DNA of 64,000 nt from NCBI RefSeq assembly GCF_963921235.1, contig NC_086097.1, positions 106,642,001 to 106,706,000 of the forward strand, in the 5' to 3' direction. The position numbers and the translations under genes are program-made. The number at the start of each line of letters is the position of its first letter. Within the stretch, counting starts at the first letter, position 1. The notes under the pieces are model-generated. The model was not told the DNA's origin, searched no databases, and saw nothing but the letters and a program-made list of their open reading frames with translations. Below, piece by piece: positions 2,343-54,444 of this stretch. This stretch comes from Mobula hypostoma (taxonomy: Eukaryota).

Positions 2343-3041
2343 TGTAACCCCCCCCCCCCCGGCGACCCTCAGGATCGCTCGGCTCACTGTTGTCTAGGGA
2401 AACAGCCTCGGCCCCACCAAACTGGGTAATTAGTTTGTGTGGATGCTGTGTGATGCACCCCACCCCGCCCAAATAACAGACAATACACCAGATACAATTA
2501 AATGATTTACAGTTTATAGATATTACTGGAACTATATAATTAAGAGGGAATAAAATATAAAAGGAAAATAAAAGGCGCCACACTTATCAAAGTTCAATCT
2601 CTTCGTGCACAAAACAGTTGGAGCTCAAGAACCTTCTTCCTCACCCTGCGACCCCTCGGACCACCTTGACCGGCCGCCTGGGACCACCAACGGTGGTCAA
2701 CCAGATACTCCACACTAGTCCGTCTCCGTCTCCTCGCCGAACGCCCTCCTCGGGGTCCGACCCTGTTAGTGGACATCACAGCACCTCGTCCATCCTCTGT
2801 CTCGCTATCCCGCCTTCTGCCCCAAAACCCCGCGTATACAGTATCTTCAAATACACCAAAACCATAACAACTATCCCAATTGGTTAATAGCACCCTCTTA
2901 TCACACTCTAAACCAAAACAAGCTGCTAGCGCAAACTTTCTCAGCGTTTAACACAACAAAGCCGCATTCCCCAGATTAACATAACAAAGACGCCATTTTA
3001 ATTAGCCTCCGCAGTAACGTAAAAGTCGAAACCCCCTTACA
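2343..3041 (-). mobile_element. 3' LTR (699 bp) of a Gypsy-type LTR retrotransposon
   Basis: TGTAA...TTACA inverted termini; on the minus strand it is immediately preceded by a purine tract GGTGGAGCGAGAG (3042-3054), the PPT position. Confidence 0.85.
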
Positions 3042-4722
3042 CTCTCGCTCCACCAAATAAAGTCATGTCCTCATGACTTCTAAATAACTCGCCAACCAGT
3101 CCTGCAGACACACAACACACACATACTCAGATACACACAGTGACAGTGCTACCCAAACAGTGGACCTTACTCCCGTCCCACAGGCGCTACATAGGCCAAC
3201 CTATCTGAGAGCTTCTTAACCCTCCGAGACCTCTGTACTCCCTCACCTAAACCCAAAAGGTTCAGACACTACTAGGGATACCTCGGGCCTGCTTGCCAAC
3301 TCCTCTGTCACTCAGGCCACCATTACAGCTCAGAGCCCACTGTCCCGTGTCTGGGGCCCCGCCTCTCCTCCTTCCTGATCCTGCCGTAATTCAGACTGCC
3401 CACAGCTAGCCCTCCCCACTACCCCTGACTGAGTGGGAGAAGGGCCAAAGGTCTCTTCCTCAATCACGGGGAAGTTAGGCAACATGTTCCACATGTGCAG
3501 CACATCATCCTTCGAATCCATATCCTTCCTCATTCCTTCGATCGGTAGCTGCTGTTTGAGTTTCTCCAAACTGAAACATTTAGCCGGGGCTACCCCTTCA
3601 GCCTCCTGCAGTCGAGACGTCAGCTTCTTCGGGGACTCCTTCAACTCTCGCCACAGCCTCAGCAGTTCTGACTCAGGGTTCTGGGCCATCTCAGTCTGGG
3701 ACGCAGTTACCCCACCAGCTTCTTCCACCCTGACCTGGAAAGCAGCAGTTAAAGAATGTTCAGCCTCCGGTTGTTTCTTCCTGAGGACGTCTTCCAGGTC
3801 AACTTTCAGTTTTTCCACTTCATTTAAACTGTCAGGTTCCTTTCAAGCGTCCGCCTCCCTTTTCCGAGATCTGTCCTCCATTTCTTCACTTCCTCAGGAT
3901 TGTGGTCAAACTCCCCTCCCTGGGCTCTCGGTTTTCTGTTGGCCTTAGTCAGAACACTTCCTTGATCTTCCCCAACTTGTAAGTCTTCCAATTTTTTCTG
4001 AATCGATGTCTCGAGTTTCTGCTGATGGTTCATTGTTTCTTCTTGCTGGATTAATTCATCAGTACATGACCTCAGTGTGGTGCAAATCTCCTCTCTTCCC
4101 TGTGTCTCATTCAGATTGACGACCTGGGATTCCATCCCCCGGTCCATCACCGTCTGTCCCAACACCAGGAAGTTCAACTGGTACGTCAGGTCATTTTTCT
4201 CACATTGCACCAAAGTCCTCCGGCTAAAAACTCCTCCACATTTGACACTTCGCTTCGGTCGCCCAGGCTCAGCCACTTGCCTCGCCTCATAGTCCCCCCA
4301 GGCGAATCCAAGCTCTAGGCGGTCATCCACATACGTCAAAACTCCACACACCTTCACTTCCCCCATGGTCTTCCTCATGCCCCGCGGGAAGGATGCAGGG
4401 GCTCCGGATATGCCCTTGGGCATCTTTTCGGATCGGAAGAATCCTAGGGAACTAGTAATGGCCGTCTTCGGCTCAACAGCCGCACTCCTCAGGATCTGGC
4501 AACACCCACTCCTCAGATGCAGCACATTAAACCACATCGCATAATCCACACACACGCTGCCTTCATCTTCCACGCCGCTAGGGTCCAGTTACCGCGACCT
4601 CTCTCTCACTGAGGTGTCTTCAGCAGTCAACTCCCCTCCCTTGTGGTAGTTCGGAGCATCTACTAAGAGGGTCTCACCCTCAGCTACTTTCCCCAAGCCG
4701 TACCACTGCTGTGGGTTGCTAG
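3042..4722 (-). mobile_element. Internal region of a non-autonomous Gypsy element: decayed RT, captured myosin rod segments and Gypsy C-terminal tail; 5' LTR not found
   Basis: RT-like motifs CVDY..WFNVLHLRSG..KTA..LGFF..MPKGISGAPASF..YVDD (YVDD at 4333-4322); tail GVQRSRRVKKLSDRLAYVAP at about 3180-3245 is typical of vertebrate Gypsy pol C-termini; adjoins the PPT and LTR. Confidence 0.8.
3537..4225 (-). pseudogene. Captured, intronless, internally deleted myosin II heavy-chain rod (S2/LMM) fragment, MYH16-like
   Basis: Collinear blocks [125 protein letters not shown] correspond to conserved sarcomeric myosin rod motifs (EKNDL, DDLQAEEDK..LTK, RLEEAGGATSAQIEM, KKLAQRLQEAE..AKCSSLEK); frameshift near 3830. 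Confidence 0.8.
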
Positions 4723-5050: not shown

Positions 5051-5243
5051 GATTTTCGGATCTCCCCCTCCCCCTCCCACTTTAAAATCTCTTACTATCT
5101 CTTCTTTCAGTTAGTCCTGACAAAGGGTCTCGGCCAAAACGTTGACTGTACCTCTTCCTATAGATGCTGCCTGGCCTGCTGCATTCACCAGCAATTTTTA
5201 TGTGTGTTGCTTGAAATTCTAACATCTGCAGATTTCCTCATGT
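5051..5243 (+). mobile_element. Short Penelope pLTR-derived insertion with 10-bp TSD
   Basis: Matches the PLE 3' end; direct repeat taacatcagt at 5041-5050 and 5244-5253. Confidence 0.8.
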
Positions 5244-5539
5244 TAACATCAGTCCAGTCCATCTTTTGTCATATTACTATTCTTGGGAAAGATGTTGCTA
5301 GTTTTCCTACTGCTTCTCATATTTCACCTGGGCCCAGGAATTTATCTGCTTCCAAAGATACTAAATCACCTCGTATCATTTCTCTCTTAAAGTACGTATC
5401 CTACTGCTTACACTCCTCCCTTTTAAATGCAACAAGCATTTCGTAACACTGTTCTGTAAAGGTATGTTATGAACTGCTTTTAGTTCTGGGTATGTCACTT
5501 GAGGAAACATACACTGAACCTGTAAGATCTACCAGCTTG

Positions 5540-5985: not shown

Positions 5986-6191
5986 TACTAATTTACTTTT
6001 AAACAAAATGATCTTGCTGTTAACAATTTTTATAGATTCCTTTGGTGTTTGCCCATAGTCCTAAATGATAGATTGACCAACCAAGCAAAGGCCTATCATA
6101 TCCAAATAAGTAGGAACACTGGCCAGGAAGAGAAAGCAGATGAGTTTTGGAGGGCTATATTTCTTGGATTCCACAGGACTCAGTAATTAGT

Positions 6192-6324
6192 CCTGACAAA
6201 GGGTCCCGGCCCGAAACGTCGACTGTACCTCTTCCTATAGATGCTGCCTGGCCTGCTGCGTTCACCAGCATTTTTTGTGTGTGTTGCTTGAACTTCCAGC
6301 ATCTGCAGATTTCCTCGTGTCTGC
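6192..6324 (+). mobile_element. Short Penelope pLTR-derived insertion with 9-bp TSD
   Basis: Near-identical to the PLE tail; direct repeat gtaattagt at 6183-6191 and 6325-6333. Confidence 0.85.
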
Positions 6325-6509
6325 GTAATTAGTACTTGTATGACATGATATTTTTCAAGGACATAGACTTTAATGGAGGAATGATGATTAACAAATTAGC
6401 TGATGATACTAAAACTGGCAGTATGGTTGTTAATAGTAAGAAAACTCCAGCTTATAATAAGATATTTCTTTATCTACCTTTGGAATATCCTAAACTGAAT
6501 AATCCACTG

Positions 6510-6802: not shown

Positions 6803-7150
6803 GAACACGCACACACACAACATGCTGGAACAACTCAGCAAGTCAGGCAGCAACTATGGAGGAAAATAAACAGCTGATGTTCCAGACCAAGACCATTCGT
6901 CAATACTGATCAGCCTGCGATAAACACAAGAGGTTCTGCAGATGCTAGAAATCTTAAGTGACACACATAAAATGCTGGAGGAACTCAGCAAGTCAGGCAG
7001 CAACTATAGAGAGGAATAAACATATGATGTTTCGGGTCGGTTTATTCAGCCAGTTCATTTCCCTCCATAGATGCTGCTTGAACAGTTGAGTTCCTCCAGC
7101 ATTTTGTGTGCATTGTTCTAGATTTCCAGCATTTGCAGAATCTTCTGCGT
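6803..7150. repeat. Cluster of Penelope pLTR derivatives: two tandem minus copies and one inverted plus copy
   Basis: atgctgga..aactcagcaagtcaggcagcaacta occurs at about 6822 and 6972; inverted ccatagatgctgc...ttccagcatttgcagaatc at 7060-7150. Confidence 0.7.
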
Positions 7151-7169
7151 CAATAATATACTGATTAGG

Positions 7170-9884: not shown

Positions 9885-12460
9885 CAAGGTGCCTACTGAG
9901 TGTACGTCCGTGGTCTTACATAGAAACACAGAAAATAGGTGGAGGAGTAGGCCATTCGGCCCTTCGAGCCTGCACCGCCATTTATTATGATCATGGCTGA
10001 TCATCCAACTCAGAACCCTGCACCAGCCTTCCCTCCATACCCCCTGATCCCCGTAGCCACAAGGGCCATATCTAACTCCCTCTTAAATATAGCCAATGAA
10101 CTGGCCTCAACTGTTTCCTGTGGCAGAGAATTCCACAGATTCACCACTCTCTGTGCGAAGAAGTTTTTCCTAATCTCGGTCATAAAAGGCTTCCCCTTTA
10201 TCCTCAAACTGTGACCCCTCGTTCTGGACTTCCCCAACATCGGGAACAATCTTCCTGCATCTAGCCTGTCCAATCCCTTTAGGATTTTATACGTTTCAAT
10301 CAGATCCCCCCTCAATCTTCTAAATTCCAACAAGTACAAGCCCAGTTCATCCGGTCCTTACTTCATATGAAAGTCCTGCCATCCTAGGAATCAATCTGGT
10401 GAACCTTCTTTGTACTCCCTCTATGGCAAGGATGTCTTTCCTCAGATTAGGGGACCAAAACTGCACACAATACTCCAGGTGTGGTCTCACCAAGGCCTTG
10501 TACAACTGCAGTAGTACCTCCCTGCTCCTGTACTCGAATCCTCTCGCTATAAATGCCAGCATACCATTTGCCTTTTTCACCGCCTGCTGTACCTGCATGC
10601 CCACTTTCAATGACTGGTGTATAATGACACCCAGGTCTCATTGCACCTCCCCTTTTCCTAATCGGCCACCATTCAGATAATAATCTGTTTTCCTATTTTT
10701 GCCACCAAAGTGGATAACTTCACATTTATCCACATTAAATTGCATCTGCCATGAATTTGCCCACTCACCCAACCTATCCAAGTCACCCTGCATCCTCTTA
10801 GCATCCTCCTCACAGCTAACACTGCCGCCCAGCTTCGTGTCATCCGCAAACTTGGAGATGCTGCATTTAATTCCCTCATCCAAGTCATTAATATATACTG
10901 TAAACAACTGGGGTCCCAGCACTGAGCCTTGCGGTACCCCACTAGTCACCGCCTACCATTCTGAAAAGGTCCCGTTTATTCCCACTCTTTGCTTCCTGTC
11001 TGCCAACATCAATACCTTACCCCCAATACCGTGTGCTTTAAGTTTGCACACTAATCTCCTGTGTGGGACCTTGTCAAAAGCCTTTTGAAAATCCAAATAT
11101 ACCACATCCACTGGTTCTCCCCTCTCCTAGTTACATCCACTCTACTAGCTACATCCTCAAAAAATTCTATGAGATTCGTCAGACATCATTTTCCTTTCAC
11201 AAATCCATGCTGACTTTGTCCGATGATTTCACCACTTTCCAAATGTGCTGTTATCACATCTTTGATAACTGACTCCAGCAGTTTCCCCACCACCGACATT
11301 AGGCTAACCGGTCTATAATTCCCCGGTTTCTCGCTCCCTCCTTTTTTAAAAAGTGGAGTTACATTAGCCACCCTCCAATCCTCAGGAACAAGTCCAGAAT
11401 CTAAAGAGTTTTGAAAAATTATCACTAATGCATCCACTATTTCTTGGGCTACTTCCTTAAGCACTCTGGGATGCAGACCATCTGGCCCTGGGGATTTATC
11501 TGCCTTTAATCCCTTCAATTTACCCAACACCACTTCCCTACTAACATGTATTTCCCTCAGTTCCTCCATCTCACTGGACCCTCTGTCCCCTACTATTTCT
11601 GGAAGATTATTTATGTCCTCCTTAGTGAAGACAGAACCAAAGTAATTATTCAATTGGTCTGCCATGTCCTTGCTCTCCATAATCAATTCACCTGTTTCTG
11701 TCTGTAGGGGACCTACATTTGTCTTTACCAGTCTTTTCCTTTTTACATATCTATAAAAGCTTTTACAGTCAGTTTTTATGTTCCCCGCCAGTTTTCTCTC
11801 ATAATCTTTTTTCCCCTTCCTAATTAAGCCCTTTGCCCTCCCCTGCTGAACTCTGAATTTCTGCCAGTCCTCAGGTGAGCCACTTTTTCTGGCTAATTTG
11901 TATGCTTCTTCTTTGGAATTGATACTATCCCTAATTTCTCTTGTCAGCCACGGGTGCACTACCTTCCTTGATTTATTCTTTTGCCAAACTGGGATGAACA
12001 ATTGTTGTAGTTCATCCATGCAATCCTTAAATGCTTGCCATTGCATATCCACCGTCAATCCTTTAAGTGTCATTTGCCAGTCTATCTTAGCTAATTCACG
12101 TCTCATACCTGTAGCTCATCTACTTCATGTCATACATTCAGAGATGCTCTTCTGCACATCACTGTTGTAATCAGTGGTTACTTGAGTTACTGTTGGCTTC
12201 CTGTCAGCTTGAACCAGTTTTTTATTTGCACCATTCTCAGCAAGTTCAGAGATTGTTCGGTGTGAAAATCCCAGCAGATCAGCTGTTTCTGAGACACTCA
12301 AACCACCATGGTCAAAGTCACTTGGATCACATTTATTCGCATTCAGATGTTGATCTGAACAACTAAACCACTTGACCATGTCTGCATGCTTTTATGCATT
12401 GGCTGATTTGATATTTGCATTAATGAGCAGGTGGACAGGTGTACCAAATAAAGTGGTCAG
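9885..12460 (-). mobile_element. Tc1-derived non-autonomous element, split by a CR1 into pieces at about 9885-9917 and 12109-12460
   Basis: The two pieces join to match the intact copy at 35883-36393; TIR-like caggtgtaccaaataaagtggtcagactgta at the right end. Confidence 0.75.
9919..12108 (-). mobile_element. Young CR1 LINE, 5'-truncated (ORF2 RT and C-terminus, few frameshifts)
   Basis: ORFs 11186-12106, 10638-10949, 10347-10610 and 10010-10339 carry KSPGPDG, NYRPVSL, QHGF, SGVPQGSVLGP, FADD, RPHLEYC, RRLRGDLI, WNSLP; TTTCTATG-type tail. Confidence 0.95.
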
Positions 12461-12900: not shown

Positions 12901-13135
12901 CAGCAACACACACAAAATGCTGGAGGAACTCAGCAGGCCAGGCAGCATTATGGAAAAGAGTACAGTCGATGCTTCATGCCAAGACCTTTCATCAGGTCTG
13001 GGGTTATGATGAAGGGTCTCAGCCTGAAATGTCAACTGTACTCCTTCCTATAGATGTTGCCTAGTCTCTGAGTTCCTCCAGCATTTTGTGCATGTTGCTT
13101 GAATTTCCAACATCTGCAGATTTTCTCTTCTTTGT
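12901..13135. repeat. Inverted (head-to-head) pair of Penelope pLTR derivatives
   Basis: 12901-12997 (minus) and 13003-13135 (plus) are reverse-complement copies of the PLE tail. Confidence 0.8.
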
Positions 13136-14930: not shown

Positions 14931-15429
14931 AAAGAAGGTTCACCAGATTGATTCCTGGGATGGCAGGACTTTCATATGAAGAAAGACTGGATGAACTGGG
15001 CTTGTACTCGTTGGAATTTAGAAGATTGAGGGGGGATCTGATTGAAACGTATAAGATCCTAAAGGGATTGGACAGGCTAGATGCAGGAAGATTGTTCCCG
15101 ATGTTGGGGAAGTCCAGAACGAGGGGCCACAGTTTGAGGATAGAGGGGAAGCCTTTTAGGACCGAGATTAGGAAAAACTTCTTCGCACAGAGAGTGGTGA
15201 ATCTGTGGAATTCTCTGCCACAGGAAACAGTTGAGGCCAGTTCATTGGCTATATTTAAGAGGGAGTTAGATATGGCCCTTGTGGCTACGGGGGTCAGGGG
15301 GTATGGAGGGAAGGCTGGGGCGGGGTTCTGAGTTGGAGGATCAGCCATGATCATAATAAATGGCGGTGCAGGCTCGAAGGGCTGAATGGCCTACTCCTGC
15401 ACCTATTTTCTATGTTTCTATGTTTCTAT
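14931..15429 (+). mobile_element. Young CR1 3' fragment, same family as 9919-12108
   Basis: Near-identical reverse complement of 9919-10410; (TTTCTATG)n tail. Confidence 0.95.
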
Positions 15430-17722: not shown

Positions 17723-18169
17723 CAATTATTTAAAAGCTTATATTATAGTACGCATATATCACACTTCAAATTGCATTTAGAAAAAGAAAAGGAAACCAGT
17801 TGTCTGCTATTCTTGCACTTGGTAACCTGACTTTTCCCTTGGGGACAATCTGATGATTATACTATATAAAGTGTCAGGAGCTCAATAAGTCATCTCCACT
17901 TACTCAGTCAAAGGGCAACTTTGATTGCTGTTTCATAGTGCTTTATTTTATGGGCAAACATCCTCAAGTAATAGATATTGACCTATAACTAATGTAAAAA
18001 GCCTCAGAATATACCAATTTATAGTAATAATTTATGTTCTGGTTCTGATAAATCTTATGGCCTGAAAGAAAAAGACTGATATACAGTTCCACTGCCAGAA
18101 AGCTTTCCTCAATACAGACCATTTCACATCTATTAAGAAATGTCTATAAAACACACAGTATACACTCCC

Positions 18170-18304
18170 CAAACAACAGGAATTCTGCAGATGCTGGAAA
18201 TTCAAGCAACACACATCAAAGTTGCTGGTGAACGCAGCAGGCCAAGCAGCATCTATAGGAAGAGGCGCAGTCGACGTTTCAGGCCGAGACCCTTCGTCAG
18301 GACT
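18170..18304 (-). mobile_element. Young Penelope pLTR-derived short copy with intact hammerhead motif
   Basis: Almost identical to 18674-18778; flanked by short direct repeat actccc. Confidence 0.88.
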
Positions 18305-18679
18305 CCCATCCTGGTGCATTGAACTGTATAACACATCTGTTAGTATTTAAAAATGCACATGATGATTTGGTACAACAGCATAGATCAAGTAGTTGCTGTA
18401 ATTTCTGGAATTAAAACTTTTATTTCTATAATTCATACATCTAGGTTTTCTCACGAAGTATTCTGTGCCACATATCATCTCATAAAGAGGAAACAAAATC
18501 ACTGCTTTGCAGCAACAGCAATGGCATTGACAAGAATGTACTGTGACGGGTAAAGTTACTGTGACCAGCTGTAACTTTAAACTTCATGGGTATAATTTAA
18601 CCAGATAAATCACTAATAAATAACACTGGCATGATATGACCTGCTGCAATTGTATAAATCCATTCTAATCCTCATTCAA

Positions 18680-21144
18680 GCAACATACATCAAAGTTGCT
18701 GGTGAACGCAGCAGGCCAAGCAGCATCTATAGGAAGAGGCGCAGTCGACGTTTCAGGCCGAGACCCTTCGTCAGGACTAACTGAAGGAAGAGTGAGTAAG
18801 GGATTTGAAAGCTGGAGGGGGAGGGGGAGATGCAAAATGATAGGAGAAGACAGGAGGGGGAGGGATGGAGCCAAGAGCTGGACAGGTGATAGGCAAAAGG
18901 GGATACGAGAGGATCATGGGACAGGAGGCCTAGGGAGAAAGACGGGGGGGGTGACCCAGAGGATGGGCAAGAGGTATATTCAGAGGGACAGAGGGAGAAA
19001 AAGGAGAGTGAGAGAAAGAATGTGTGCATAAAAAGGAGTAACAGCTGGGGTACGAGGGGGAGGTGGGGTCTAGCGGAAGTTAGAGAAGTCAATGTTCATG
19101 CCATCAGGTTGGAGGCTACCCAGACGGAATATAAGGTGTTGTTCCTCCAACCTGAGTGTGGCTTCATCTTTACAGTAGAGGAGGCCGTGGATAGACATGT
19201 CAGAATGGGAATGGGATGTGGAATTAAAATGTGTGGCCACTGGGAGATCCTGCTTTCTCTGGCGGACAGAGCGTAGATGTTCAGCAAAGCGGTCTCCCAG
19301 TCTGCGTCGGGTCTCACCAATATATAAAAGGCCACATCGGGAGCACCGGACGCAGTATATCACCCCAGTCGACTCACAGGTGAAGTGATGCCTCACCTGG
19401 AAGGACTGTTTGGGGCCCTGAATGGTGGTAAGGGAGGAAGTGTAAGGGCATGTGTAGCACTTGTTCCGCTTACACGGATAAGTGCCAGGAGGAAGATCAG
19501 TGGGGAGGGATGGGGGGGACGAATGGACAAGGGAGTTGTGTAGGGAGCGATCCCTGTGGAATGCAGGGGGGGGGGAGGGAAAGATGTGCTTAGTGGTGGG
19601 ATCCCGTTGGAGGTGGCGGAAGTTACGGAGAATAATATGTTGGACCCGGAGGCTGGTGGGGTAGTAGGTGAGGACCAGGGGAACCCTATTCCTAGTGGGG
19701 TGGTGGGAGGATGGAGTGAGAGCAGATGTACGTGAAATGGAGGAGATGCGTTTAAGAGCAGAGTTGATAGTGGAGGAAGGGAAGCCCCTTTCTTTAAAAA
19801 ATGAAGACATCTCCCTCGTCCTAGAATGAAAAGCCTCATCCTGACAGCAGATGCGGCGGAGACGGAGGAATTGCGAGAAGGGGATGGCGTTTTTGCAAGA
19901 GACAGGGTGAGAAGAGGAATAGTCCAGATAGCTGTGAGAGTCAGTAGGCTTATAGTAGATATCAGTGGATAAGCTGTCTCCAGAGACAGAGACAGAAAGA
20001 TCTAGAAAGGGGAGGGAGGTGTCAGAAATGGACCAGGTAAACTTGAGGGCAGGGTGAAAGTTGGAGGCAAAGTTAATAAAGTCAACGAGTTCCGCATGCG
20101 TGCAGGAAGCAGCGCCAATGCAGTCGTCGATATAGCGAAGGAAAAGTGGGGGACAGATACCAGAATAGGCACGGAACATAGATTGTTCCACAAACCCAAC
20201 AAAAAGGCAGGCATAGCTAGGACCCATACGGGTGCCCATAGCTACACCTTTAGTTTGGAGGAAATGGGAGGAGCAAAAGGAGAAATTATTAAGAGTAAGG
20301 ACTAATTCCGCTAGACGGAGCAGAGTGGTGGTAGAGGGGAACTGATTAGGTCTGGAATCCAAAAAGAAGCGTAGAGCTTTGAGACCTTCCTGATGGGGGA
20401 TGGAAGTATATAAGGACTGGACATCCATGGTGAAAATAAAGCTGTGGGGGCCAGGGAACTTAAAATCATCGAAAAGTTTAAGAGCGTGAGAAGTGTCACG
20501 AACATAGGTCGGAAGGGATTGAACAAGGGGTGATAAAACAGTGTCGAGGTATGCAGAAACGAGTTCGGTGGGGCAGGAGCAAGCTGAGACAATAGGTCGG
20601 CCAGGACAGGCAGGTTTGTGGATCTTGGGTAGGAGGTAGAAACGGGAAGTGCGGGGTGTGGGAACTATAAGGTTGGTAGCAGTGGATGGGAGATCCCCTG
20701 AGCGGATAAAGTCGTTGATAGTGTGGGAGACAATGGCCTGGTGCTCCTTGGTGGGGTCACGATCGAGGGGTAAATAAGAGGAGGTATCCGCGAGTTGTCG
20801 CTGTGCCTCGGCAAGGTAGAGGTCAGTACGCCAGACTACAACAGCACCCCCCTTATCAGCGGGTTTAATAATAAGGTTAGGATTAGTGCGGAGGGAGTGG
20901 AGAGCAGAGCGTTCCGAAGGAGTGAGGTTGGAATGGGGACAAGGTGCGGTGAAGTCGAGACGGTTGATGTCCCGTCGGCAGTTGGAAATAAAGAGATCCA
21001 GAGCAGGCAGAAGACCAGAGCGGGGTGTCCATGAAGAAGAGGAGGGTTGAAGACGGGAGAAGGGGTCATCGGTGGGGGTGGAAGAGTCCTTGCCGAAGAA
21101 GTAGGCTCGGAGACGGAGACGGCGGAAGAAAAGTTCCGCATGAA
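18680..21144 (-). mobile_element. Penelope-like retroelement (Neptune-type), 5'-truncated, young, with 14-bp TSD
   Basis: RT/GIY-YIG ORF followed by a pLTR-type 3' region; taatcctcattcaa at 18666-18679 and 21145-21158. Confidence 0.95.
18742..18779 (-). ncRNA. Minimal type I hammerhead ribozyme motif in the Penelope pLTR
   Basis: Minus strand AGTC-CTGACGA-A-GGGTCTCGGCCT-GAAAC-GTC-GACT: CUGANGA and GAAA core boxes, stem II hairpin, GUC triplet, stem I AGUC/GACU. Confidence 0.7.
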
Positions 21145-23805: not shown

Positions 23806-24390
23806 TAGCTGCAATATTACCTCTCGGCTCTTAAACTCAATCCCACAATTGATGAAGGCCAATGCACCACAGAGCCTTAACCACAGAGTCAACCTGCGTA
23901 GCAGCTTTGAGTGTCCTATGGACTCAGACCCCAATATCTCTCTGATCCTCCACACTGCCAAGAGTCTTGCCATTAATGCTAAATTATATTTTATGTTGGC
24001 ATTGACTTCCCTTATCAGTCACAGTTGCCTCATCCTCCCTTTAGAATATTTCTTCATCTTTGGGTACATCTATCCTGCACTTCTCAAATTGCCCCCAGAA
24101 GCTCCAGCCATTGTTCGTCTGATGTTATCGCTGATAATGTCCCATTCCAATCAACTCCTGCCAACTCCTTTCTCATGCCTCCATATTTGAATGCAGACAG
24201 TATTTGGAATAAGGTACAAGATCTTGTAGCGCAACTAGAGATTGGCAGGTATGATGTTGTAGGTATCACTGAATTGTGACTTAAGGAAGTTCATAGCTGT
24301 GAGCTTAACATCCAAAGATATACATTGTATTGAAAGGATAGGCAGGTAGATAGAGGGTTGCCGTGGATCTGTGGGTGAAAGATGAAATCA
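23806..24390. mobile_element. Mosaic of CR1 fragments (two minus pieces, then a plus endonuclease piece)
   Basis: 23806-23985 matches 13780-13925; 23990-24182 is ORF2 linker (minus); 24183-24390 reads YLNADSIWNK..YDVVGITE (plus). Confidence 0.8.
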
Positions 24391-24391
24391 A

Positions 24392-24720
24392 TGGTTGCTG
24401 CAGCTACTGTGCTATACAAAATGCACACCAGCCACAGCCCTGCAGACCTTCACACCATGCTGCCTTCATCTTATGAGAGATGACACACCACACGATCAAG
24501 TTTATCTATGCCTGCTCATGCTGTTTCTATGCCTGATGAGACAACCTACACACTGGATAGAAGCTTCCTTCACTGTGCTGTCAGAATTTGGAACAGCCTT
24601 CCAAATGCTGTGGTTGGAAACATCTGCGATGATGGGATCCAAGCCTTCAAGAGTAGAGTGCACAAACACCTATTATCTCTGGGAGGGAAGTCACATGCTT
24701 CTTCATAAGCTATCACAAAG
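24392..24720 (+). mobile_element. 3' end of a distinct CR1-group LINE
   Basis: VAAATVLYKMH...TLDRSFLHCAVRIWNSLP...IQAFKSRVHKHL, a typical non-LTR ORF2 C-terminus, unlike the other CR1s here. Confidence 0.65.
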
Positions 24721-25177
24721 GGGACCAGGATGGCAATGCTTGGTTGTTGGTAGGTAAGGTTAATACTGGACTTTCAAGAGCACTTCTGAGTTATGTTCCG
24801 GCTGGACTTAGTCCTTAAGCTGCTGGAGAACAGTGCAGAAAGAAGAGGTGCTGCTTTCTCCCAGCAGGGTTTAGTTCTTAGTTCCAAGTGCTCCTGCCAC
24901 ATTTTGTCACCCTACAACCTTATCCTTATCCTTCTCTTTGAATTATGGAGGACAGCATGTGTATAAACGTCTCTCTCCAGCAGACTTCATCATGATCATC
25001 ATGACTCTAGTATTTCTACTATTTTTAATGTTTCTCAATTGTACATATGACTTTTTTGTGTTCTATCGCTGAGCAGCAGTGAACCATCTGATTGGCCTAT
25101 CAGAGTTCTCTTTGGGAACTAGTTGACTTGATCAGCATTTCTGATCTGGCTATTGTTCACGATTGCATTTAATTTTT

Positions 25178-25790
25178 TAACAAAGTCCTTAGAAAGGGGT
25201 GACATAGGATCAGAAAAAATGTAGAATCCTTGTGTGTAGAGTTAAGAAACTGTAAGGGTAAAAAGACCCTGCTGGGAGTTATATACAGGCTTCTGAACAT
25301 TAGCAATGGATATAGCAATTTGGAAGGCACAGGGTATACACATCCCAAGGAGAAAGAAGTATTCTAAAGGCAGAACAACAGAGCTGAGGCTGACTTGAGA
25401 ACTCAAAGCCAACATAAAAGCCAAAGAGAGGACATAAAATAGAGCAAAAATCAGGGGGAAGTTAGAGGATTGGGAAGCTCTTAAAAACCAACAGAATGCA
25501 ACTAAAAAAGTCATAAAGAAGGAAAAGATGGAACATAAGGGTAAGCTAGCCAATAATGTTAAAGACGATACAAAAAGTTTCTTCAGATACATAAAGTGTA
25601 AAAGAGAGGCGAGAGTAGATATCGTACCACAGGAAAATGCTGCTGAAGAGGTAGTAATGGGGGAGATAAGTATTTCGCATCAGTCTTCACTGTGGAAAAT
25701 ACTAGCTGTATGCTGGACGTTCGAGGGTTTCAGGGGACAAAAGTGACAAAAAGGAACAAAAAAGTTGCCATTTCTAGGGAGAAGAAGATT
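25178..25790 (+). mobile_element. CR1 ORF2 fragment continuing the endonuclease piece at 24183-24390
   Basis: ESLCVELRNCKGKKTL and KLANNVKDDTKSFFRYIK motifs, with deletions. Confidence 0.8.
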
Positions 25791-37659: not shown

Positions 37660-38347
37660 ATAGTCATAGTCATACTTTATTGATCCCGAGGGAAATTGGG
37701 TTTCATTACAGTTGCAGCAACCAAGAATAGAGTATAGATAGAGCAATATAAAACCATAAATAATTAAATAATAGTATGTAAATTATGCCAGGAAATAAGT
37801 CCAGGACCAGCCTATTGGCTCAGGGTGTCTGACCCTCCAAGGGAGGAGTTGTAAAGTTTGATGGCCACAGGCAGGAATGACTTCCTATGACGCTCAGTGT
37901 TGCATCTCGGTGGAATGAGTCTCTAGCTGAATGTACTCCTGTGCCCAACCAGTACATTATGTAGTGGATGGGAGACATTGTCCAAGATGGCATGCAACTT
38001 GGACAGCATCCTCTTTTCAGACACCACCGTCAAGAGTCCAGTTCCATCCCCACAACATCATTGGCCTGACGAATGAGTTTGTTGATTCTGTTGGTGTCTA
38101 CTACCCTTAGCCTGCTGCCCCAGCACACAACAGCAAACACGATAGCACTGGCCACCACAGACTCGTAGAATATCCTCAGCATCGTTCGGCAGATGTTAAA
38201 GGACCTCAGTCTCCTCAGGAAATAGAGACGGCTCTGACCCTTCTTGTAGACAGCCTCAGTGTTCTTTGACCAGTCCAGTTTATTGTCAATTCGTATCCGC
38301 AGGTCTTTGTAATCCTCCACCATAGTCCACACTGACCCCCTGGATGT
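37660..38347 (-). mobile_element. Rex1/Babar-type LINE 3' fragment nested in the CR1 endonuclease
   Basis: ORF 38030-38362 [35 protein letters not shown]; (ATGACT)n tail. Confidence 0.88.
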
Positions 38348-39259
38348 TGTTGTGGCCATCACTGATTTGTGGCTGAAGGATGGTTGCAGTTGGGAGCCAA
38401 ATATCCAAGGTTACACATTGTATTGGAAGGATAGAAAGGTGGGCAGAGGGGCTGGTGTGGCTCTACTGGTAAAGAATGGCATCAAATCAGTAGGAGGATG
38501 CGGCATAGAATTGGAAGATGTTGAATCCTTGTGGGTTGAGTTAAGAAACGGCAAGGATAAAAGGACCCTGATGGCAGTTATACACAGGCCTCCTAACAGT
38601 AGCTGTGATGCAGACCACAGATCACAACAGGAAATAGAAAAGGCATGTCAAACGGGCAATGTTATGATAGCCATGGGAGATTTCAACATGCAGGTCAACT
38701 GGGAAAATCAGGTTGGTAACAGATCTCAAGAGAGTGAGTTTGTTGAATGTCTATGAGATGTCTTTTTTAAAGCATTTGTTGCTGAGCCTACTAGAGAATC
38801 AGCTGTACTGGACTGGGTGTTATGTAATGAACTAGAGGTGATTAGGGAGCTTAAGGTAAAAGAACCCTTAGGAGGCAGTAATCACATGATTCAGTTCAAT
38901 TTGAAATTTGATAGGGAGAAAGTAAAGCCTGACATAGCAGTATTTCAGTGGAGTAAAGAAAATTACAGTGGTATGAGAGAGGAGTTGGCCAAAGTACATT
39001 GGAAGGAGATGCTGACAGGGATAAGAACAGAGCAGCAATGGTGTGAGTTTCTGAGGAAAATGAGGAGAATGCAGGACAGATGTATTCCAAAAATGAAAAA
39101 ATACTCAAATAGCAAAATAGTACAACTATGGCTGACAAGGGAAGTCAAAGCTAATGTAAAAGCACATGAGAGGGCATACATCAAAGCAAAAATTAGTGGG
39201 AAGAAAGAGGATTGGGAAGCTTTTACAAACCAACAGAGAGCAACTAAAAGAATCATTAG

Positions 39260-39877
39260 ATTTTGAAGACACATAGTTCCCTTTTATTGTCATTTAGTAA
39301 TGCATGCATTAAGAAATGATACATTATTTCCTCCAGTGTGACATCAAAAAACGCAGGACAAACCAAGACTGAAAAAACTGACAAAACCACATAATTATAC
39401 ATATAGTTACAACAGTGCACAATACCATAACTTGATGAAGAAAGTCCGTGAGCACAGTAAAGTTCAAAGTTTCTCAAATGTCCCACATCTCATGCAGACG
39501 GGAGAGGGAAGAAAAACTCTCCCTGCCATGCTGACCACAATCCAACTCTGAGTCATCCGAAAACTTCGAGCTCTGATCAGCTCTCCGACACCGAGTACTG
39601 AGTGCCATCTCTGTCCAAGCGATTCGACCTCTCTCTCGGTCGCCAAAAGCAGGCAAGCCCGGGGATTTTGAGGCCTACCCTCCAAAAGATTCCCGCCCAC
39701 ACAGTAACGACAGCAGCGGACGGGCGTTTCAGAAATTTCTCCAGATGTTCCTCTGTGATTTCACGTCCATTTTCCATCAAATCAGAATTGTGCATGGCCC
39801 CTATTTAACAGATACGACATCATTTTTCACTGGAGAGTTGCGCATGCGTGGCGCACTGCCATCTTCTCCTCCGGCCT
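39260..39877 (-). mobile_element. About 620-bp non-coding interspersed element nested in the CR1
   Basis: Cleanly interrupts CR1 ORF2; CpG-rich 5' end ggaggagaagatggcagtgcgcc; 3' end aatgacaataaaagg resembles Rex1-type tails. Confidence 0.65.
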
Positions 39878-41112
39878 TTTAAGAGGGCAAAGATGAACTA
39901 GGAAAGCAAGCTCGCAAACAACATAAAAATGGATAGTAAAAACTTTTACAAGTACAATGTATGTTAAAAAAAAAAGAGATGAGAGTGGATATAGGGCTGC
40001 TAGAAAATGAGGCCAGGGAAATAATAATGGGGGCAAGGAGATGGCAGGTGAACTAAGTGAGTATTTTGCATCAATCTTTCACTGTGGAAGACACGAGCAA
40101 TGTGCCAGATGTTGAAGGGTGTGAGGGAAGAGAAGTGAGTGCAGTTACTATTATAAGGGAGAAGATGCTCAAAAAGCTGAAAAGCCGAAGGGTACACATC
40201 ACCCAGACCAGATAAACTGCACCCGAGGGTTCTGAAAAAGTTAGCGGTTATGGAGGCATTAGTAATGATCTTTCAAAAATCATTGGATTCTGGCTTGGTG
40301 CTAGAGGACTGGAAAATTGCAAATGTCACTCCACTCTTTAAGAAAAGAGGGAGGCAGCAGAAAGGAAATTCACCTGAGCTCAGTAGTTGGGAAGATGTTG
40401 GAATCAATTGTTAAGGATGAGGTTATGGAGTAGTTGGTGACATATTTGGTCTACTTCTCTTCACCTATTGTCTATTGTCTAAGATAGGACAAAGTCAGCA
40501 TGGTTTCCTTAAGGGAAAATCTTGTCTGACGACTCTGTTGGAATTCTTTGAGGAGATTACAAGTAGGATAGGTAAAGGGGACGCAGTGGATGTTGTATTT
40601 TTGGACTTTGACAAGGTACCATACAAGAGGCTGCTTTCCAAGTTAAGAGCCCATGGTACCGCAGGAAAGTTACTGGCATCGTTACAGCATCAGCTGATTG
40701 GTAGGAGGCAGCAATTAGGAATAAAAAGATCCTTGTCTGGTTGGCTGACACTGACTAGTGGTGTTCTGCAAGGTCCAGTGTTGGGACCAGTTCTTTTTGT
40801 GCTGTATATCGATAATTTAGATGATAGAACAGATTTTTTTGTTGCCAAGTTTGCAGCGATAAGAAGAATGGTGGAGGGGCAGGTAGTGTTGAAGAAACAG
40901 GTGGCTGCAGAAGGACAGACAGATTAGGAGAATGGGCAAGAAAGTGACAAATACATGGCCATGCACTTTGGTAGTTGATATAAATGTATATATTATTTTC
41001 TAAGCAGTGAGAAATCCAAAAATCTGAACTGCAAAGGGACCTGGGAATCATTGTGCAGAACACCCTAGAGATTAACTTACAGGTTGAGTCGGTGATGAGG
41101 AAGGCAAATGGC

Positions 41113-48958: not shown

Positions 48959-51172
48959 GGAAAACAGAAATAAATCTAAGATAGTGAGCAGTAAAGACGT
49001 CAGGAAAGACAGGCAGGTGATAACGCAAATTTCTAGCCATTGGGATGAGTTGCAGAGCAATAAAGTTGCAGTGCAATCAAAGCGAAAAGTACCAAACACT
49101 GGCCTTAAGCTGTTATACTTAAATGCACGAGCATAAGGAATAAGGTGGATGATCTTGTCGTACAACTACAGATTGGCAGGTATGATATTGTGGCCATCAC
49201 TGAGATGTGGTTAAAGGATGCATGTCTCAGGGAGCTGAACGTCCAAGGATACACGATGTATTGGAAGGATAGGAAGGTAGGCAGAGGGGGTGGCATAGCT
49301 TTATTGGTAAGAAATGATATCAAATCATTAGAAAGAGGTGACATAGGATCGGAAGGTGCAGAATCTTTATGGGTTGAGCTAAGAAATTGCAGGGGTAAAA
49401 GAACCCTGATGGCAGTTATATACAGGCCTCCAAACAGCTGCAGTGATGTGGACTACAAATTACAACAGGAAATACAAAAGGCTTGTCAGGGCAGTGTTAT
49501 GATAATTGTGGGGGATTTTAACATGTGAGTGGATTGGGAAAATCAGGTCAGCACTGGACCTCAAGAGAGAGAATTTGTAGAATGTCTGCGAGATGGCTTT
49601 TTAGAACAGCTTGTTGTTGAGCCCACTAGGGGACCGGCTGTACTGGATTGGGTATTGTGTAATGAACCGGAGGTGATTAGAGAGATTGAGGTGAAGGAAC
49701 CCCTAGGAGACAGTGATCATACATGATTGAGTTCACTGTGAAATTTGAAAAAGAGAAGCTGAAATCCGATGTGTCGGTATTTCAGTGGAGTAAAGGAAAT
49801 TATAGTCGCATGAGAGAGGAACTGGCCAACGTTGACTGGAAAGGGACACTGGCGGGAAGGACGACAGAGCAGCAGTGGATGGGGATTATGCGAGAAGTGA
49901 GGAAGGTGCAAGACGGGTATATTCCAAAAAAGAAGAAATTTTCAAATGGAAAAAGGATGCAACTGTGGCTGACAAGAGAAGTCAAGGCCAAACTTAAAGC
50001 AAAGGAGAGGGCATACAAGGAAGCAAAAATTAGTGGGAAGACAGAGGATTGGGAAGTTTTTAAAAGCTTACAAAAGGAAACTAAGAAGGTTATTAAGAGG
50101 GAAAAGATGAACTATGAAGGGAGGTTAGCAAATAATATCAAAGAGGATACTAAAAGCTTTTTCAAGTATATAAAGAGTAAAAGACAGGTGAGAGTAAATA
50201 TAGGACTGATAGAAAATGATGCTGGAGAAATTGTAATGGGAGATAAGGAGATGGCAGAGGAACTGAACGAGTATTTTGCATCAGTCTTCACTGAGGAAGA
50301 CATCAGCGGTATACCAGACACTCAAGGGTGGCAGGGAAGAGAAGTGTGCGCAGTCACAATTACGACAGAGAAAGTACTCAGGAAGCTGAACGGTCTAAAG
50401 GTAGATAAATCTCCCGGACCAGATGGAATGCACCCTCGTGTTCTGAAGGAAGTAGCTGTGGAGATTACGGAGGCATTAGCCATGATCTTTCAGAAGTCGA
50501 TATATTCTGGCATGGTTCCAGAGGACTGGAAGATTGAAAATGTCACTCCGCTATTTAAGAAGGGGGCAAGGAAGCAAAAAGGAAATTATAGACCTGTTAG
50601 CTTGACATCGGTGGTTGGGAAGTTGTTGGAGTCGATTGTCAAGGATGAGGTTATGGAGTACCTGGAGGCATATAACAAGACAGGCAGAACTCAGCATGGT
50701 TTCCTTAAAGGAAAATCCTGCCTGACAAACCTATTACAATTTTTTGAGGAAATTACAAGTAGGTTAGACAAGGGTGATGCAGTGGATGTTGTATATTTGG
50801 ATTTTCAGAAGGCCTTTGACAAGGTGCCACACATGATGCTACTTAACAAGATAAGAGCCCATGGAATTACGGGAAAGCTATATACGTGGATAGGGCGTTG
50901 GCTGATTGGCAGGAAACAGAGAGTGGGAATAAAGGGATCCTATTCTGGTTGGCTGCCGGTTACCAGTGGTGTTCCACAGGGGTCCATGTTGGGGACGCTT
51001 CTTTTTACATTGCACATCAGCGATTTGGATTATGGAATAGATGGCTTTGTGGCTGAGTTTGCTGATGATACAAAGATAGGTGGAGGGGCCGGTAGTGCTG
51101 AGGAAACAGAGAGTCTGCAGAGAGACTTGGATAGATTGGAAGAATGGGTAAAGAAGTGGCAAATGAAATACA
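48959..51172 (+). mobile_element. CR1 ORF2 (endonuclease and RT), fairly young, 3' end missing
   Basis: ORFs 49145-49528, 49529-49726 and 49723-51195 (490 aa): GDFN, SDH, KSPGPDG, DFQKAFDKV, GVPQGS, FADD. Confidence 0.93.
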
Positions 51173-52310
51173 ACACACATCAAAGTTGCTGGTGAACGCA
51201 GCAGGCCAGGCATCATCTCTAGGAAGAGGTACAGTTGACGTTTCGGGCCGAGACCCTTCGTCAGGACTAAATGAAAGAAGAGCTAGTAAGAGATTTGAAA
51301 GTGGGAGGGGGAGGGGGAGATCCAAAATGATAGGAGAAGACAGGAGGGGGAGGGATGGAGCCAAGAGCTGGACAGTTGATTGGCAAAAGGGATAGGAGGG
51401 GATCATGGGACAGGAGGCTCAGGGAGAAAGAAAAGGGAGGGGGGGAGAAACCCAGAGGATGGTCAAGGGGTATAGTGAGAGGGACAGAGGGAGAGCAAGG
51501 AGAGAGAGAGAAAGAATGTGAGTATATAAATAAATAATGGATGGGGTGCGAGGGGGAGGTGGAGTATTAGCGGAAGTTTGAGAAGTCAATGTTCATGCCA
51601 TCAGGTTGGAGGCTACCCAGACACAATATAAGGTGTTGTTCCTCCAACCTGAGTGTGGCTTCATCTTTACAGTAGAGGAGGCCGTGGATAGACATATCAG
51701 AATGGGAATGGGACATGGAATTAAAATGTGTGGTCACTGCGAGATCCTACGTTCTCTGGCGGACAGAGCATAGGGGTTCAGCGAAACGATCTCCCAGTCT
51801 GCATCGGGTCTTGTCAATATATAAAAGGCCACATCGGGAGCACCGGATGCAGTATATCACCCCAGCCGACTCACAGGTGAAATGTCGCCTCACTTGGAAG
51901 GACTGTCTGGGGCCCTGAATGGTGGTAAGGGAGGAAGTATAGCGGGAGGATGGAGTGAGAGCAAACTTGCGTGAAATGAGGGAGATGTGTTTGAGAGCAG
52001 AGTTGATGGTGGAGGAAGGGAAGCCCCTTTCTTTAAAAAAGGACATCTCCCTCATCCTGGAATGAAAAGCCTCATCGTGAGAGCAGATGCGGCGGAGACG
52101 GAGGAATTGCGAGAAGGGGATGGCATTTTTGCAGGAGACAGGGTGAGAAGAGGAATAGTCCAGATAGCTGTGAGAGTCAGTAGGCTTATAGTAGACATCA
52201 ATAGATAAACTGTCTCCAGAGATAGAGACAGAAAGATCTAGAAAGGGGAGGGAGGTGTCAGAAATGGACCAGGTAAACCTGAGGGCAGGATGAAAGCTGG
52301 AGGCAAAGTA
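51171..52310 (-). mobile_element. Second Penelope-like element, 5'-truncated with an internal deletion
   Basis: High similarity to 18680-20075; lacks the segment between PSS and YTSSL; GIY-YIG partly mutated; hammerhead motif at about 51232-51268. Confidence 0.92.
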
Positions 52311-52312
52311 AC

Positions 52313-54430
52313 TTTGCATTGTGATCACTGGATCCGAAGTGCTCCCCAACACAAACCTCCGTCACCTGACCTATCTCATTCCCTAACAGGAGATCCAACA
52401 CTGCCCCTTCTCTAGTTGGTAACTCTATGTATTGCTGCAAAAAACTATCCGGCACACATTTTACAAACTCCAAACCATCCAGCCCTTTTACAGTGTGGGC
52501 TTCCCAGTCTGTGTGTGGAAAATGAACATCTCCCACAATCACAACCTTGTGCTCACTACAAATATCTGCTATTTCCTTACAAATTTGCTCTTCCAATTCT
52601 CACTCCCCATTTGGTGGTCTATAATACACCCCCATAAGAGTTACTACATCTTTCCCATTCCTTAATTCCACCCAAATAGCTTCCCTAGAGGAGCCCTCTG
52701 ATCTATCCTGCCAGAGCACCGCTGTAATATTTTCTCTGACAAGCAATGCAACACCTCCCCCTCTTGTCCCTCCGATTCTATCACACCTGAAGCAATTAAA
52801 TCCAGGAACATTTAGTTGCCAATCACACCCCTCCTGTAACCATGTTTCACTAATAGCTACCTCATCATACTTCCAGGTATCAATCCATGCTTTAAGCTCC
52901 TCCACCTTTCTTATAATGCTCCTAGCATTAAAATAAATGCATTTAAGAAGTTTTCCACCTCTTACTCTCTGTTTATCACTAACGGTACAAACCACTTTAC
53001 TATTTTCTTTTTCTTCCTTCTTCCCTACATCTGTTCCTACACTCTAGTTCCCCTCCCACCTCGTATCTAGTTTAAATCCACCGGAGCCTCTCTAGCAAAT
53101 CTACCTGCAAGAATATTTGTCCCCCTCCAGTTTAGTTGTAGACCGTCCTGCCAGAACAGGCCCCACCTTCGCTGGAAAACTGCCCAATTATCTATAAATC
53201 TGAAGCCCTCCCTCCTGCACCATGTCTTCAGCCACGTGTTGATCTGCTCAATCTTACTATTTTTAAACCCGCCTGCACATGGAACCGGTAGCAATCCTGA
53301 GATTGCTATCCTGGAGGTCCTGTTCTTTAACTTGGCTCCTAACTCCATAAACTCTCCTTTCAGGACCTTCTCACTCTTCCTACCCACGTCATTGGTCCCT
53401 ACATGGACCACGACATCTGGCTGCTCACTCTCCCACTTGAGAATACCAAGGACTCGATCCGAGATATCGCGGACCTTGGCACCAGGGAGGCAACAGACCA
53501 TCTGGGATTCTCAATCTCTTCCACAGAACCTTTTATCTGTCCCCTTAACTATTGAATCCCCAATCACTACTGCTCTCCTCTTTTCCTTCCTTCCCTTCTG
53601 AGTTGAGGGTCCCATCTCAGTGCCAGAGACGCAACCACTGCAACTTGTCCCTGGTAGGTCGCCCCATCAACAGTATCCAAAATGTTGTACTTATTACTGG
53701 TGGGAACGGCCACAGGGGTGCTATGCTCATTCTGTATATTCCCCTTCCCTCTCCTGACAGTCACCTGTCTCCGGACCCTTAGGGGTGATTATCTCCCTGT
53801 AACTCCTCTCTATTTCTGTCTCTGCCTCCCGAATGATCCGAAGTTCATCCATCTCCAGTTTCAGTTCCCTTACTCGGTTTGTCAGTAGCTGCAGCTGGAT
53901 GCACCTTTCGCAGGTGTAGTTATCAGGGACAATTGTGCTCACCCTGACTTCCCACATCCTGCAAACGGAGCACTCAACTGCCTCTATTACCTACTCTTAA
54001 GGTAATTAGATTTATTAAAGGAACTTACCCGGCCTTACCACACTTAGAGTGAACCTCTTCCTCAGCCTCTGCTCGCCGAAGCCTCAGAAGCCAAAGCCTT
54101 CCTACTCTGTCCCCCTCTACTCCATCACCCGCTCCGTTAATCTGCTCTCCTTTAAATACTCCCGCTGCCTCACGGGCCGACTTACACGCGCTGGCGCAGT
54201 CGTGCCCCGTTCAACTGCCGAAGAAAATGACCGACTTCCATAAACTGCTCTCTTTTAAATACTCCCGCTGCCTCATGGTCCAACTTACACGCGCTTGCGC
54301 AGTCGTGCCCCATTCAACTGCTGAAGAAAATGACCGACTTCCACAAAATGCTCTCTTTTAAATACTCCCGCTGCCTCATGGTCCGACTTACACACGCTTG
54401 CGCAGTCGCGCCCCATTCAACTGCCGAAGA
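52313..54430 (-). mobile_element. 5' half of a CR1: repeat-containing 5' UTR, ORF1 (Zn-finger, coiled coil, SGNH esterase) and ORF2 endonuclease
   Basis: MWE..YTCERCIQL..RVRELK; MVCCLPGAKV..VHVGTND..DGLQLN; KCIYFNARSI..SETWL..YRPP..SSDHN. Confidence 0.92.
54142..54430. repeat. Tandem repeat, 103-bp unit, about 2.8 copies, at the CR1 5' end
   Basis: Units start at 54142, 54245 and 54348. Confidence 0.92.
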
Positions 54431-54444
54431 AGAAAAAAAATGAT

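Follow-up and report, generated by a model that had tools for sequence, protein, structure and literature searches.

A 64,000-nucleotide stretch of the genome of the ray Mobula hypostoma (RefSeq assembly GCF_963921235.1, contig NC_086097.1, here C1, positions 106,642,001 to 106,706,000, hereafter the window) contains what is very probably a decayed insertion of a non-autonomous Ty3/Gypsy retrotransposon family, in which the integrase region was replaced by spliced mRNA of an MYH16-related myosin heavy-chain gene and which was then amplified with the myosin piece as an eroding passenger. The insertion lies on the minus strand at 4711-2343 and is a single, 5'-truncated and broken copy of the repeat. 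The internal frame of the element runs from decayed pol through a reverse transcriptase (RT) with a YVDD motif, a short RNase H remnant and the myosin rod to the native post-integrase tail of pol. An initial annotation, made from the sequence alone, had proposed a propagating Gypsy element with captured, intronless myosin sequence; our analysis supports this core interpretation and reassigns one of the four motif blocks on which it was based.

A myosin rod fragment inside a Gypsy pol frame

The insert is a decayed fragment of a myosin rod, not a myosin. In a phmmer search of PDB, the two open reading frames (ORFs) of the window copy give weak but colinear matches to MYH7 and MYH4, which follow each other in the order MYH7 ~978-1062, the EEAGG region at ~1145-1175, and ~1361-1430. 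For an unbroken sister copy (P0001), all 12 PDB matches with E<=1 belong to class II myosin heavy chains, with a best E-value of 1.1e-7. We also built a custom profile of 575 columns from ten vertebrate myosin rods (six MYH16-type, four others) and ran it with filters off. Every subfamily of the element matches this profile in colinear blocks (columns ~41-234, 273-309 and 510-556); the first domain of the family peptide, for instance, scores 70.9 bits over columns 102-216. The scores of 16 element peptides range from 15.6 to 175 bits, 15 of them reaching at least 49.7 and the lowest belonging to a peptide that keeps the last block only, whereas 16 reversed peptides stay at or below 5.2 bits and 320 shuffled ones at or below 10.4 bits. 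With PDB matches confined to myosins and scores of about 50-175 bits against at most 10.4 in the controls, the similarity is specific to myosin rather than that of a generic coiled coil. When a 194-amino-acid piece of the shark myosin-16-like protein P0072 was used as query against the genome, 150 of 1566 candidates were scored (E 1.4e-39 to 3.9e-13). One of these is a true MYH16 exon on C36 (87%); all the others scored are long uninterrupted matches at 33-53% identity, which include the copies studied here.

The myosin-derived part of the window copy extends from ~4138 to 3537 and comprises ~200 codons in three colinear blocks. The initial annotation had drawn it at 4225-3537, of which the end holds, while the start moves to near 4138, with 4228-4139 being RNase H. 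Three of its four myosin motifs (DLQ..ED..LTK, EEAGG.T..Q.EM and KKL..RLQEAE..AKC.SLEK) were recovered by both phmmer and the profile; the fourth, EKNDL, belongs to RNase H.

Five other loci in the genome (C18:48745314-48746731, C50:30689110-30689772, C21:138691427-138692201, C184:304888-305403 and C157:172388-172903) carry long uninterrupted Myosin_tail_1 matches with stops inside. They cover later positions of this Pfam family (514-993) and look like other processed or captured tail fragments, distinct from the element family.

Gypsy parentage and cargo-free relatives

The protease-RT remnant of one copy matched 347 of 1.84 billion representative proteins at E<=1e-3. From the cluster of the best long match we took the autonomous Gypsy pol protein P0282 (1522 amino acids), with the Pfam order RVT_1, RT_RNaseH, Integrase_H2C2 and rve, as reference. 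The RT of the element aligns to P0282 residues ~353-551 (46-60%, and 48-60% for sister copies and subfamilies), its short RNase H piece to residues 700-746 and its tail to ~1334-1395 (1339-1395 at E 2.8e-5 for P0003 and 0.003 for P0001), so that RT and RNase H remnants survive in Gypsy order and integrase is absent. In the window copy, the RT is barely detectable by Pfam RVT_1 (E 0.024, below the cut-off) and by Ty3 RT in PDB (E 0.019), with YVDD at the place where it had been read initially (Table 1). RNase H is identified by the FSRRTL...VMDR stretch, which contains EKNDLTYQL (window ~4198-4172) and in sister copies aligns to P0282 702-731 within Pfam RT_RNaseH/RT_RNaseH_2 (pol stretch SEKNYPTHKLEFLAL; 50% over 30 amino acids, E 7e-5). 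In an older subfamily (L039, L040), RNase H is even preserved through to its end (for L039, Pfam RT_RNaseH at E 2.5e-11), and the myosin follows directly. The proposal that both RNase H and integrase had been replaced is thus right for integrase and for most of RNase H, of which a remnant, the EKNDL block, was kept.

The same genome contains many full-length relatives of P0282, with 37 matches at 63-76% identity, several of which are contiguous over residues 1-1522 in ~4.46 kb and therefore have no space for an insert. These are autonomous relatives without cargo; none natively carries the myosin sequence. At the DNA level, the autonomous copy L038 resembles the element in the tail (72% over 113 nt), in the polypurine tract (PPT) together with the start of the long terminal repeat (LTR; 77% over 205 nt) and in a stretch inside the LTR (83% over 71 nt). 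Because tail, PPT and LTR start are shared in this way, the tail of the element is native to Gypsy, and the Gypsy-type C-terminus recognized initially is confirmed by both the P0282 and the L038 alignments. In the autonomous proteins P0282 and P0285, the C-terminus of pol reads through the 3' region into the LTR start.

An intronless insert from a longer ancestor

Mapping of the insert onto host genes bears out the expectation that it spans several host exons without introns. In a host fast-type myosin gene at C68:15.82 Mb, exons meet at profile columns ~106, 160, 210, 241, 375, 420, 452 and 518. Further introns, at ~262 and ~289, are present in the orthologue of MYH16 at C36:112.72 Mb and in a divergent MYH16-like locus at C68:14.66 Mb; at the latter, 2.7 kb separate IEMNKKRESELLRL from the rod sequence before it. 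The element is uninterrupted through the sites at ~106, 160, 210, 241 and 518, and also at ~262 and 289, so that at least five intron sites are crossed. The insert therefore derives from spliced RNA.

Subfamilies differ in what they retain of the rod. The window family lacks profile columns 62-102, 235-276 and 310-512, while L039 and L040 keep columns 17/85-252 and then jump to 525 (17-252 plus 525-556 in L040), without the EEAGG block. Columns ~94-351 survive unbroken in a decayed copy at 175.39 Mb of C1. Since older copies keep these stretches, the ancestral insert included at least columns 17-351 and 510-556 and, most simply, all of ~17-556. Deletion breakpoints fall in repeated ...ELEE... 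motifs. For these comparisons, cargo rows were aligned per domain with hmmalign, as MAFFT --addfragments misplaced deleted blocks.

Copy number, mobility and distribution

The element is a non-autonomous derivative: its RVT_1 match stays below the Pfam cut-off, its RT has internal deletions, its integrase is missing and its protease motif reads DPG. It is nevertheless numerous. A search of the 3.48-Gb genome with window stretch 3330-4722 returned 1495 candidates; among the 40 that were scored, 38 further copies match over nearly the full length (90-93% identity) and one is split by an insertion. The window copy is hence one of a family of ~1500 candidate copies, and the propagation assumed in the initial annotation is borne out by full-length members with two LTRs and target-site duplications. 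Six of seven loci fetched with flanks have a 5' LTR ~1 kb upstream of the point at which the window copy starts, the seventh being itself rearranged at the 5' end. Four full-length copies (L009, L010, L012, L013) measure ~4.04-4.10 kb with two LTRs of ~690 nt each. Identity between the two LTRs is 95.9, 95.6 and 94.8% in three copies and 92.2% in the fourth, which has a deleted 5' LTR. Each of the four is flanked by a perfect 4-bp target duplication (TAAA, CATA, CTGG and TATG) and has an 18-nt sequence resembling a primer-binding site (PBS) 2 nt inside from the 5' LTR; we take this PBS to be of the tRNA-Pro type. A purine tract precedes the 3' LTR, in agreement with the TG..CA LTR and PPT noted initially for the window copy (3041-2343 and 3054-3042). 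Among eight aligned copies, pairwise identity is 93.9-95.8%. Related copies also occur in contigs of three sequencing runs of guessed kind, which are uninformative on expression.

The same RT-myosin-tail build is found in annotated proteins of Mobula hypostoma, of Mobula birostris (four contigs, up to 97% identity), of Hypanus sabinus (P0006, P0008, P0134 and P0136 on four contigs, 59-61%) and of Hemitrygon akajei (two contigs). The hosts belong to two families of the Myliobatiformes, Myliobatidae and Dasyatidae. Annotation pipelines have given several family members myosin names, for example, in Mobula, 'myosin heavy chain, striated muscle-like', 'skeletal muscle-like' and 'cardiac muscle isoform-like', and, in Hypanus, 'putative uncharacterized protein MYH16', a mis-annotation that inflates ray myosin gene counts. 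A further protein of Hemitrygon akajei, P0013 (330 amino acids), shows the EEAGG and RLQEAE blocks amid unrelated sequence that weakly matches the MIR domain, and is probably a gene model that absorbed an element fragment.

How the chimera arose and whether its cargo matters

The structure of the element suggests the following course of events. The parent is a member of a Ty3/Gypsy lineage with many copies in the Mobula hypostoma genome. In an ancestor of the family, the part of pol between the end of RNase H and the acidic tail that follows integrase was swapped for at least ~540 codons of spliced myosin mRNA, most likely by two template switches of reverse transcriptase in a virus-like particle with a co-packaged mRNA. 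As LTRs, a tRNA-type PBS, PPT and a gag-like region were kept, the chimera could have been copied in trans by the proteins of autonomous relatives. It was then amplified to more than 1000 copies and diversified into subfamilies, which lost different pieces of RT, RNase H and rod through deletions between short repeats.

Several observations weigh against this reading and are taken up here together with the alternatives that they touch. The RNase H-to-myosin and myosin-to-tail junctions could be read in L039 and L040 and compared with P0282, but these sequences are decayed: the switch points are eroded, the source gene is uncertain, and a switch at the RNA level and a recombination at the DNA level are not distinguished. 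Mobilization in trans has to be reconciled with LTRs of autonomous relatives that resemble those of the element at only 77-83%, and in patches. The same chimera might instead have formed at the DNA level, if a Gypsy copy had been joined to a processed pseudogene or cDNA of myosin, for example by illegitimate recombination or repair, and the product transcribed and mobilized afterwards. Such an event would leave the same end structure, the genome does hold other long intronless myosin-tail matches (for example those on C18 and C21 listed above), and the frequent deletions between short repeats in the family indicate that recombination-like events occur. We nonetheless consider a DNA-level origin unlikely: the cargo lies in pol orientation and, in many copies, in frame with pol, and the account of LTR-mediated retrocopies cited here ascribes the same architecture, a partial mRNA within the internal ORF between two retained LTRs, to RT template switches (PMC5131818).

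A second question is whether the myosin piece is a passenger, as we infer, drifting without clear coding constraint and with a minor chance of some function. Substitutions in eight copies are spread evenly over codon positions, both in the RT (singletons 24/23/22, shared variants 4/5/6) and in the myosin part (singletons 24/21/30, shared variants 7/9/9). Between subfamilies, dN/dS (the ratio of nonsynonymous to synonymous substitution rates, NG86) is 0.36-0.56; this is below one, yet the +1 control frame gives similar values, 0.43-0.61, and the +2 frame 0.72-1.0. Indels are ~5-fold rarer within the frame (6 in 1428 nt, each private to one copy) than in the untranslated regions and LTR (21, 8 of them shared, in ~990 nt), a contrast tempered by the homopolymer runs of the LTR. 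These values, together with a frame that stays open over RT, myosin part and tail in several copies and a cargo that is kept in all subfamilies of two ray families, would fit a fusion of Gag-protease-RT remnant and myosin coiled coil that is made as a protein and aids the family, for example by entering the particles of a helper, or acts on that helper. To this we give little credence, considering the even hits on codon positions and the similar control frames, the free deletion of different rod segments by different subfamilies, the many helix-unfriendly residues in the translations, the DPG protease motif and the internal deletions of the RT. In its most specific form, in which the oligomerising rod of a putative Gag-pol-remnant-coiled-coil fusion aids entry to, or competition for, the particles of the autonomous helper, the idea is a long shot; if true, it would account for a host segment that stayed in frame through a radiation common to two ray families.

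We favour a single capture, followed by erosion through nested deletions. That related elements captured myosin mRNA more than once, independently, could be read from the RNase H-to-myosin junction and the retained rod blocks, both of which vary among subfamilies. Such repeated capture is very improbable in view of the element-borne sequences forming one clade (support 100/100), of the myosin-to-tail junction common to all subfamilies and of the 309->513 breakpoint common to those that keep block 2; nested deletions account for the differences, starting from a longer ancestor to which older copies still bear witness.

That the similarity to myosin merely reflects a generic coiled coil or a domain native to this Gypsy clade is scarcely credible: homology does rest on PDB phmmer, BLAST and the unfiltered custom profile, with Pfam Myosin_tail_1 (PF01576) above its cut-off in none of 19 element-derived proteins scanned (only weak, unrelated coiled-coil families appeared) and with no longer relatives of P0005 at E<=1e-3 among 6643 candidates from 5.8 billion proteins, a database too large for a 35-bit similarity, but the three colinear blocks carry myosin-specific motifs, PDB matches are myosins only, profile scores lie far above controls, the cargo falls within the vertebrate sarcomeric myosin radiation and autonomous relatives are without the segment.

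The myosin that donated the cargo

The initial annotation had considered the cargo MYH16-like, which holds at the level of the clade. Identity to MYH16-type rods slightly exceeds that to other rods, with 55-58% vs 45-52% for L039 and 48-52% vs 41-44% for the window family. Rooting the tree with three non-muscle myosins of the host places the cargo clade as sister to the MYH16 clade as a whole, and the split of cargo plus MYH16 from fast/cardiac myosins plus outgroup has a support of 89.7/96. The cargo is not nested within MYH16: a position next to shark MYH16 (myosin-16-like) was rejected by the approximately unbiased (AU) test (p 0.008), and diagnostic sites are mixed. At the columns that separate the six MYH16 rods from the four others, L039 has 21 MYH16 states, 13 of the other type and 20 of neither, and some subfamilies lean the opposite way. 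The donor is thus best described as an MYH16-related paralogue, not necessarily MYH16 itself.

Among host loci, C68:14.66 Mb is closest to the cargo, with a mean identity of 74% to nine element rows over 37 columns, compared with 64% for host MYH16, 53.5% for the fast gene, 52.8% for C40 and 49.4% for C2. This best match rests on those 37 columns only, which, like the failure to find further exons of the locus in 8.7 kb upstream (nothing significant, one match at E 0.85), belongs with the points against our reading given above. The C2 and C40 genes were compared over one exon, and the sample comprised types other than MYH7B and MYH15. The best named relatives of the locus are 'myosin-16-like' proteins (61-67%); perhaps the locus is a pseudogene, or its introns are very long.

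This divergent MYH16-like locus (C68:14663720-14666736; L036, L037) has two clear rod exons and provides the best host match to the EEAGG block. Four other, intron-rich host myosin loci (C68:25.5 Mb, C36:126.1 Mb, C45:100.2 Mb and C80:36.0 Mb) yielded nothing colinear in tblastn with element peptides; they are of non-muscle type and served as outgroup. On the same contig as the MYH16-like locus, C68:15.31-15.89 Mb holds a tandem cluster of eight fast-type sarcomeric myosin heavy-chain genes that are 90-100% identical in one 130-amino-acid exon. An intron of one cluster gene contains a reverse-transcriptase ORF (391 amino acids) of the long interspersed nuclear element type (L033 4126-5301, minus strand).

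The window copy and its surroundings

The features of the window copy are compiled in Table 1. Homology of other copies to it starts abruptly at 4711/4709, which marks the 5' truncation. The missing 5' 1.7 kb, with 5' LTR, PBS, gag-like region and protease remnant, is absent from the whole 64-kb window, and only the 3' LTR is retained. A family-specific internal deletion lies inside myosin block 1 at 4079/4078. In addition, 12 nt (near 4025), 13 nt (near 3830) and 6 nt that are present in the other seven aligned copies are missing, and the 13-nt gap breaks the frame into two ORFs, 4588-3824 and 3842-3330.

Table 1. Parts of the myosin-carrying Gypsy copy in the window, in order along the minus strand.
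Feature	Position	Strand	Basis and remarks
Decayed pol remnant upstream of RT	4589..4711	-	Translation; homology to other copies begins at 4711, frame ends in stop 4591-4589
Reverse-transcriptase remnant	4226..4588	-	YVDD 4333-4322, through to KCGGVF 4243-4226; internal deletions vs autonomous RT
RNase H remnant (FSRRTL...VMDR)	4139..4228	-	Contains EKNDLTYQL; sister copies align to P0282 702-731
Myosin-rod block 1	3732..4138	-	Profile columns ~43-61 + 103-234 (~MYH7 905-1095)
Myosin-rod block 2 (EEAGG region)	3633..3731	-	Profile columns 277-309; spans intron site ~289 of MYH16-type host genes
Myosin-rod block 3 (RLQEAE region)	3537..3632	-	Profile columns 513-551 (~MYH7 1385-1425)
Native Gypsy pol C-terminal tail (post-integrase)	3330..3536	-	Stop 3332-3330; alignment to P0282 1339-1395
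Decayed 3' end of pol frame / 3' untranslated stretch	3042..3329	-	Polypurine tract 3054-3042, adjoining the LTR
3' LTR, TG...CA, 699 nt	2343..3041	-	TGTAAGG at 3041 through TTACA at 2343; 92-94% match to both LTRs of full-length copies

The window also holds other repeats. Two copies of a ~1.9-kb repeat (83-94% identity) lie at 18157-20073 and 51164-52309, and short related pieces (5054-5244 and 6187-6336) immediately precede the window copy on its upstream side. Two arms of an inverted repeat, 442 nt long, 97% complementary and 4.6 kb apart, occupy 9918-10359 and 14982-15423; a third related piece lies at 56460-56543, and the arms are probably the terminal repeats of a different mobile element. 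A further interspersed repeat is represented by three diverged copies (62-82%) at 24199-25745, 38344-40616 and 49130-50812, and three 103-nt units (83-86% identical) stand in tandem at 54124-54432. A short interspersed repeat that resembles a short interspersed nuclear element and has a common core of ~70 nt (…GCTGGAGGAACTCAGCA.GTCAGGCAGCA…) occurs in direct and inverted copies at 6811-7168, 12906-12976 and 62201-62325.

Comparison with known systems

Acutely transforming retroviruses likewise carry host mRNA sequence in place of viral coding sequence, which renders them replication-defective and dependent on a helper. Unlike these, the ray element lacks env, shows no sign of infection or of a benefit from its cargo, and has spread through the germ line as a genomic repeat. 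Large retrotransposon derivatives (LARDs) and terminal-repeat retrotransposons in miniature (TRIMs) keep LTR, PBS and PPT without a working pol, are mobilized in trans and contain no recognizable host gene, whereas the ray family retains visible pol remnants along with its host-derived insert. Among the literature searched (titles and abstract openings), no description of a myosin-carrying element family in rays was found.

The closest parallel is offered by LTR-mediated retrocopies as described by Tan et al. (2016, Genome Res 26:1663, PMC5131818). In the sections of that paper drawn on here, a partial mRNA replaces internal ORFs, both LTRs stay, and the chimera can retropose again as a non-autonomous element. 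The ray element shares the intronless partial mRNA between both LTRs, and its copy number and target duplications attest to the secondary retroposition of the chimera. The retrocopies described there are young and present in a single or few copies (15 polymorphic in Drosophila, 5 of 7 in zebrafish, 4 of 10 in chicken), with microsimilarity visible at their junctions. In contrast, the ray chimera numbers ~1500 candidate copies, has diversified into subfamilies in two ray families, and its junctions are too old to read in this way. The same source names maize Bs1 and rice LTR elements, in which host gene fragments between LTRs were further retroposed, and, as a vertebrate LTR element that captured host mRNA, the human HERV-K / FAM8A1 processed pseudogene. 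As far as these examples are characterized there, the plant elements are of low copy number, Bs1 with pieces of three genes, whereas the ray family combines one vertebrate muscle-gene fragment with high copy number; HERV-K / FAM8A1 derives from an endogenous retrovirus and exists as one untranscribed locus, whereas the ray chimera is an amplified Gypsy family.

The mechanism, LTR-mediated retroposition, is therefore already known, and it is the scale and persistence in a vertebrate that stand out. Captured host mRNA can seed a large, long-lived vertebrate repeat family, beyond isolated retrocopies, and the family offers a dated natural series of a transduced coding segment that erodes via nested short-repeat deletions and near-neutral drift.

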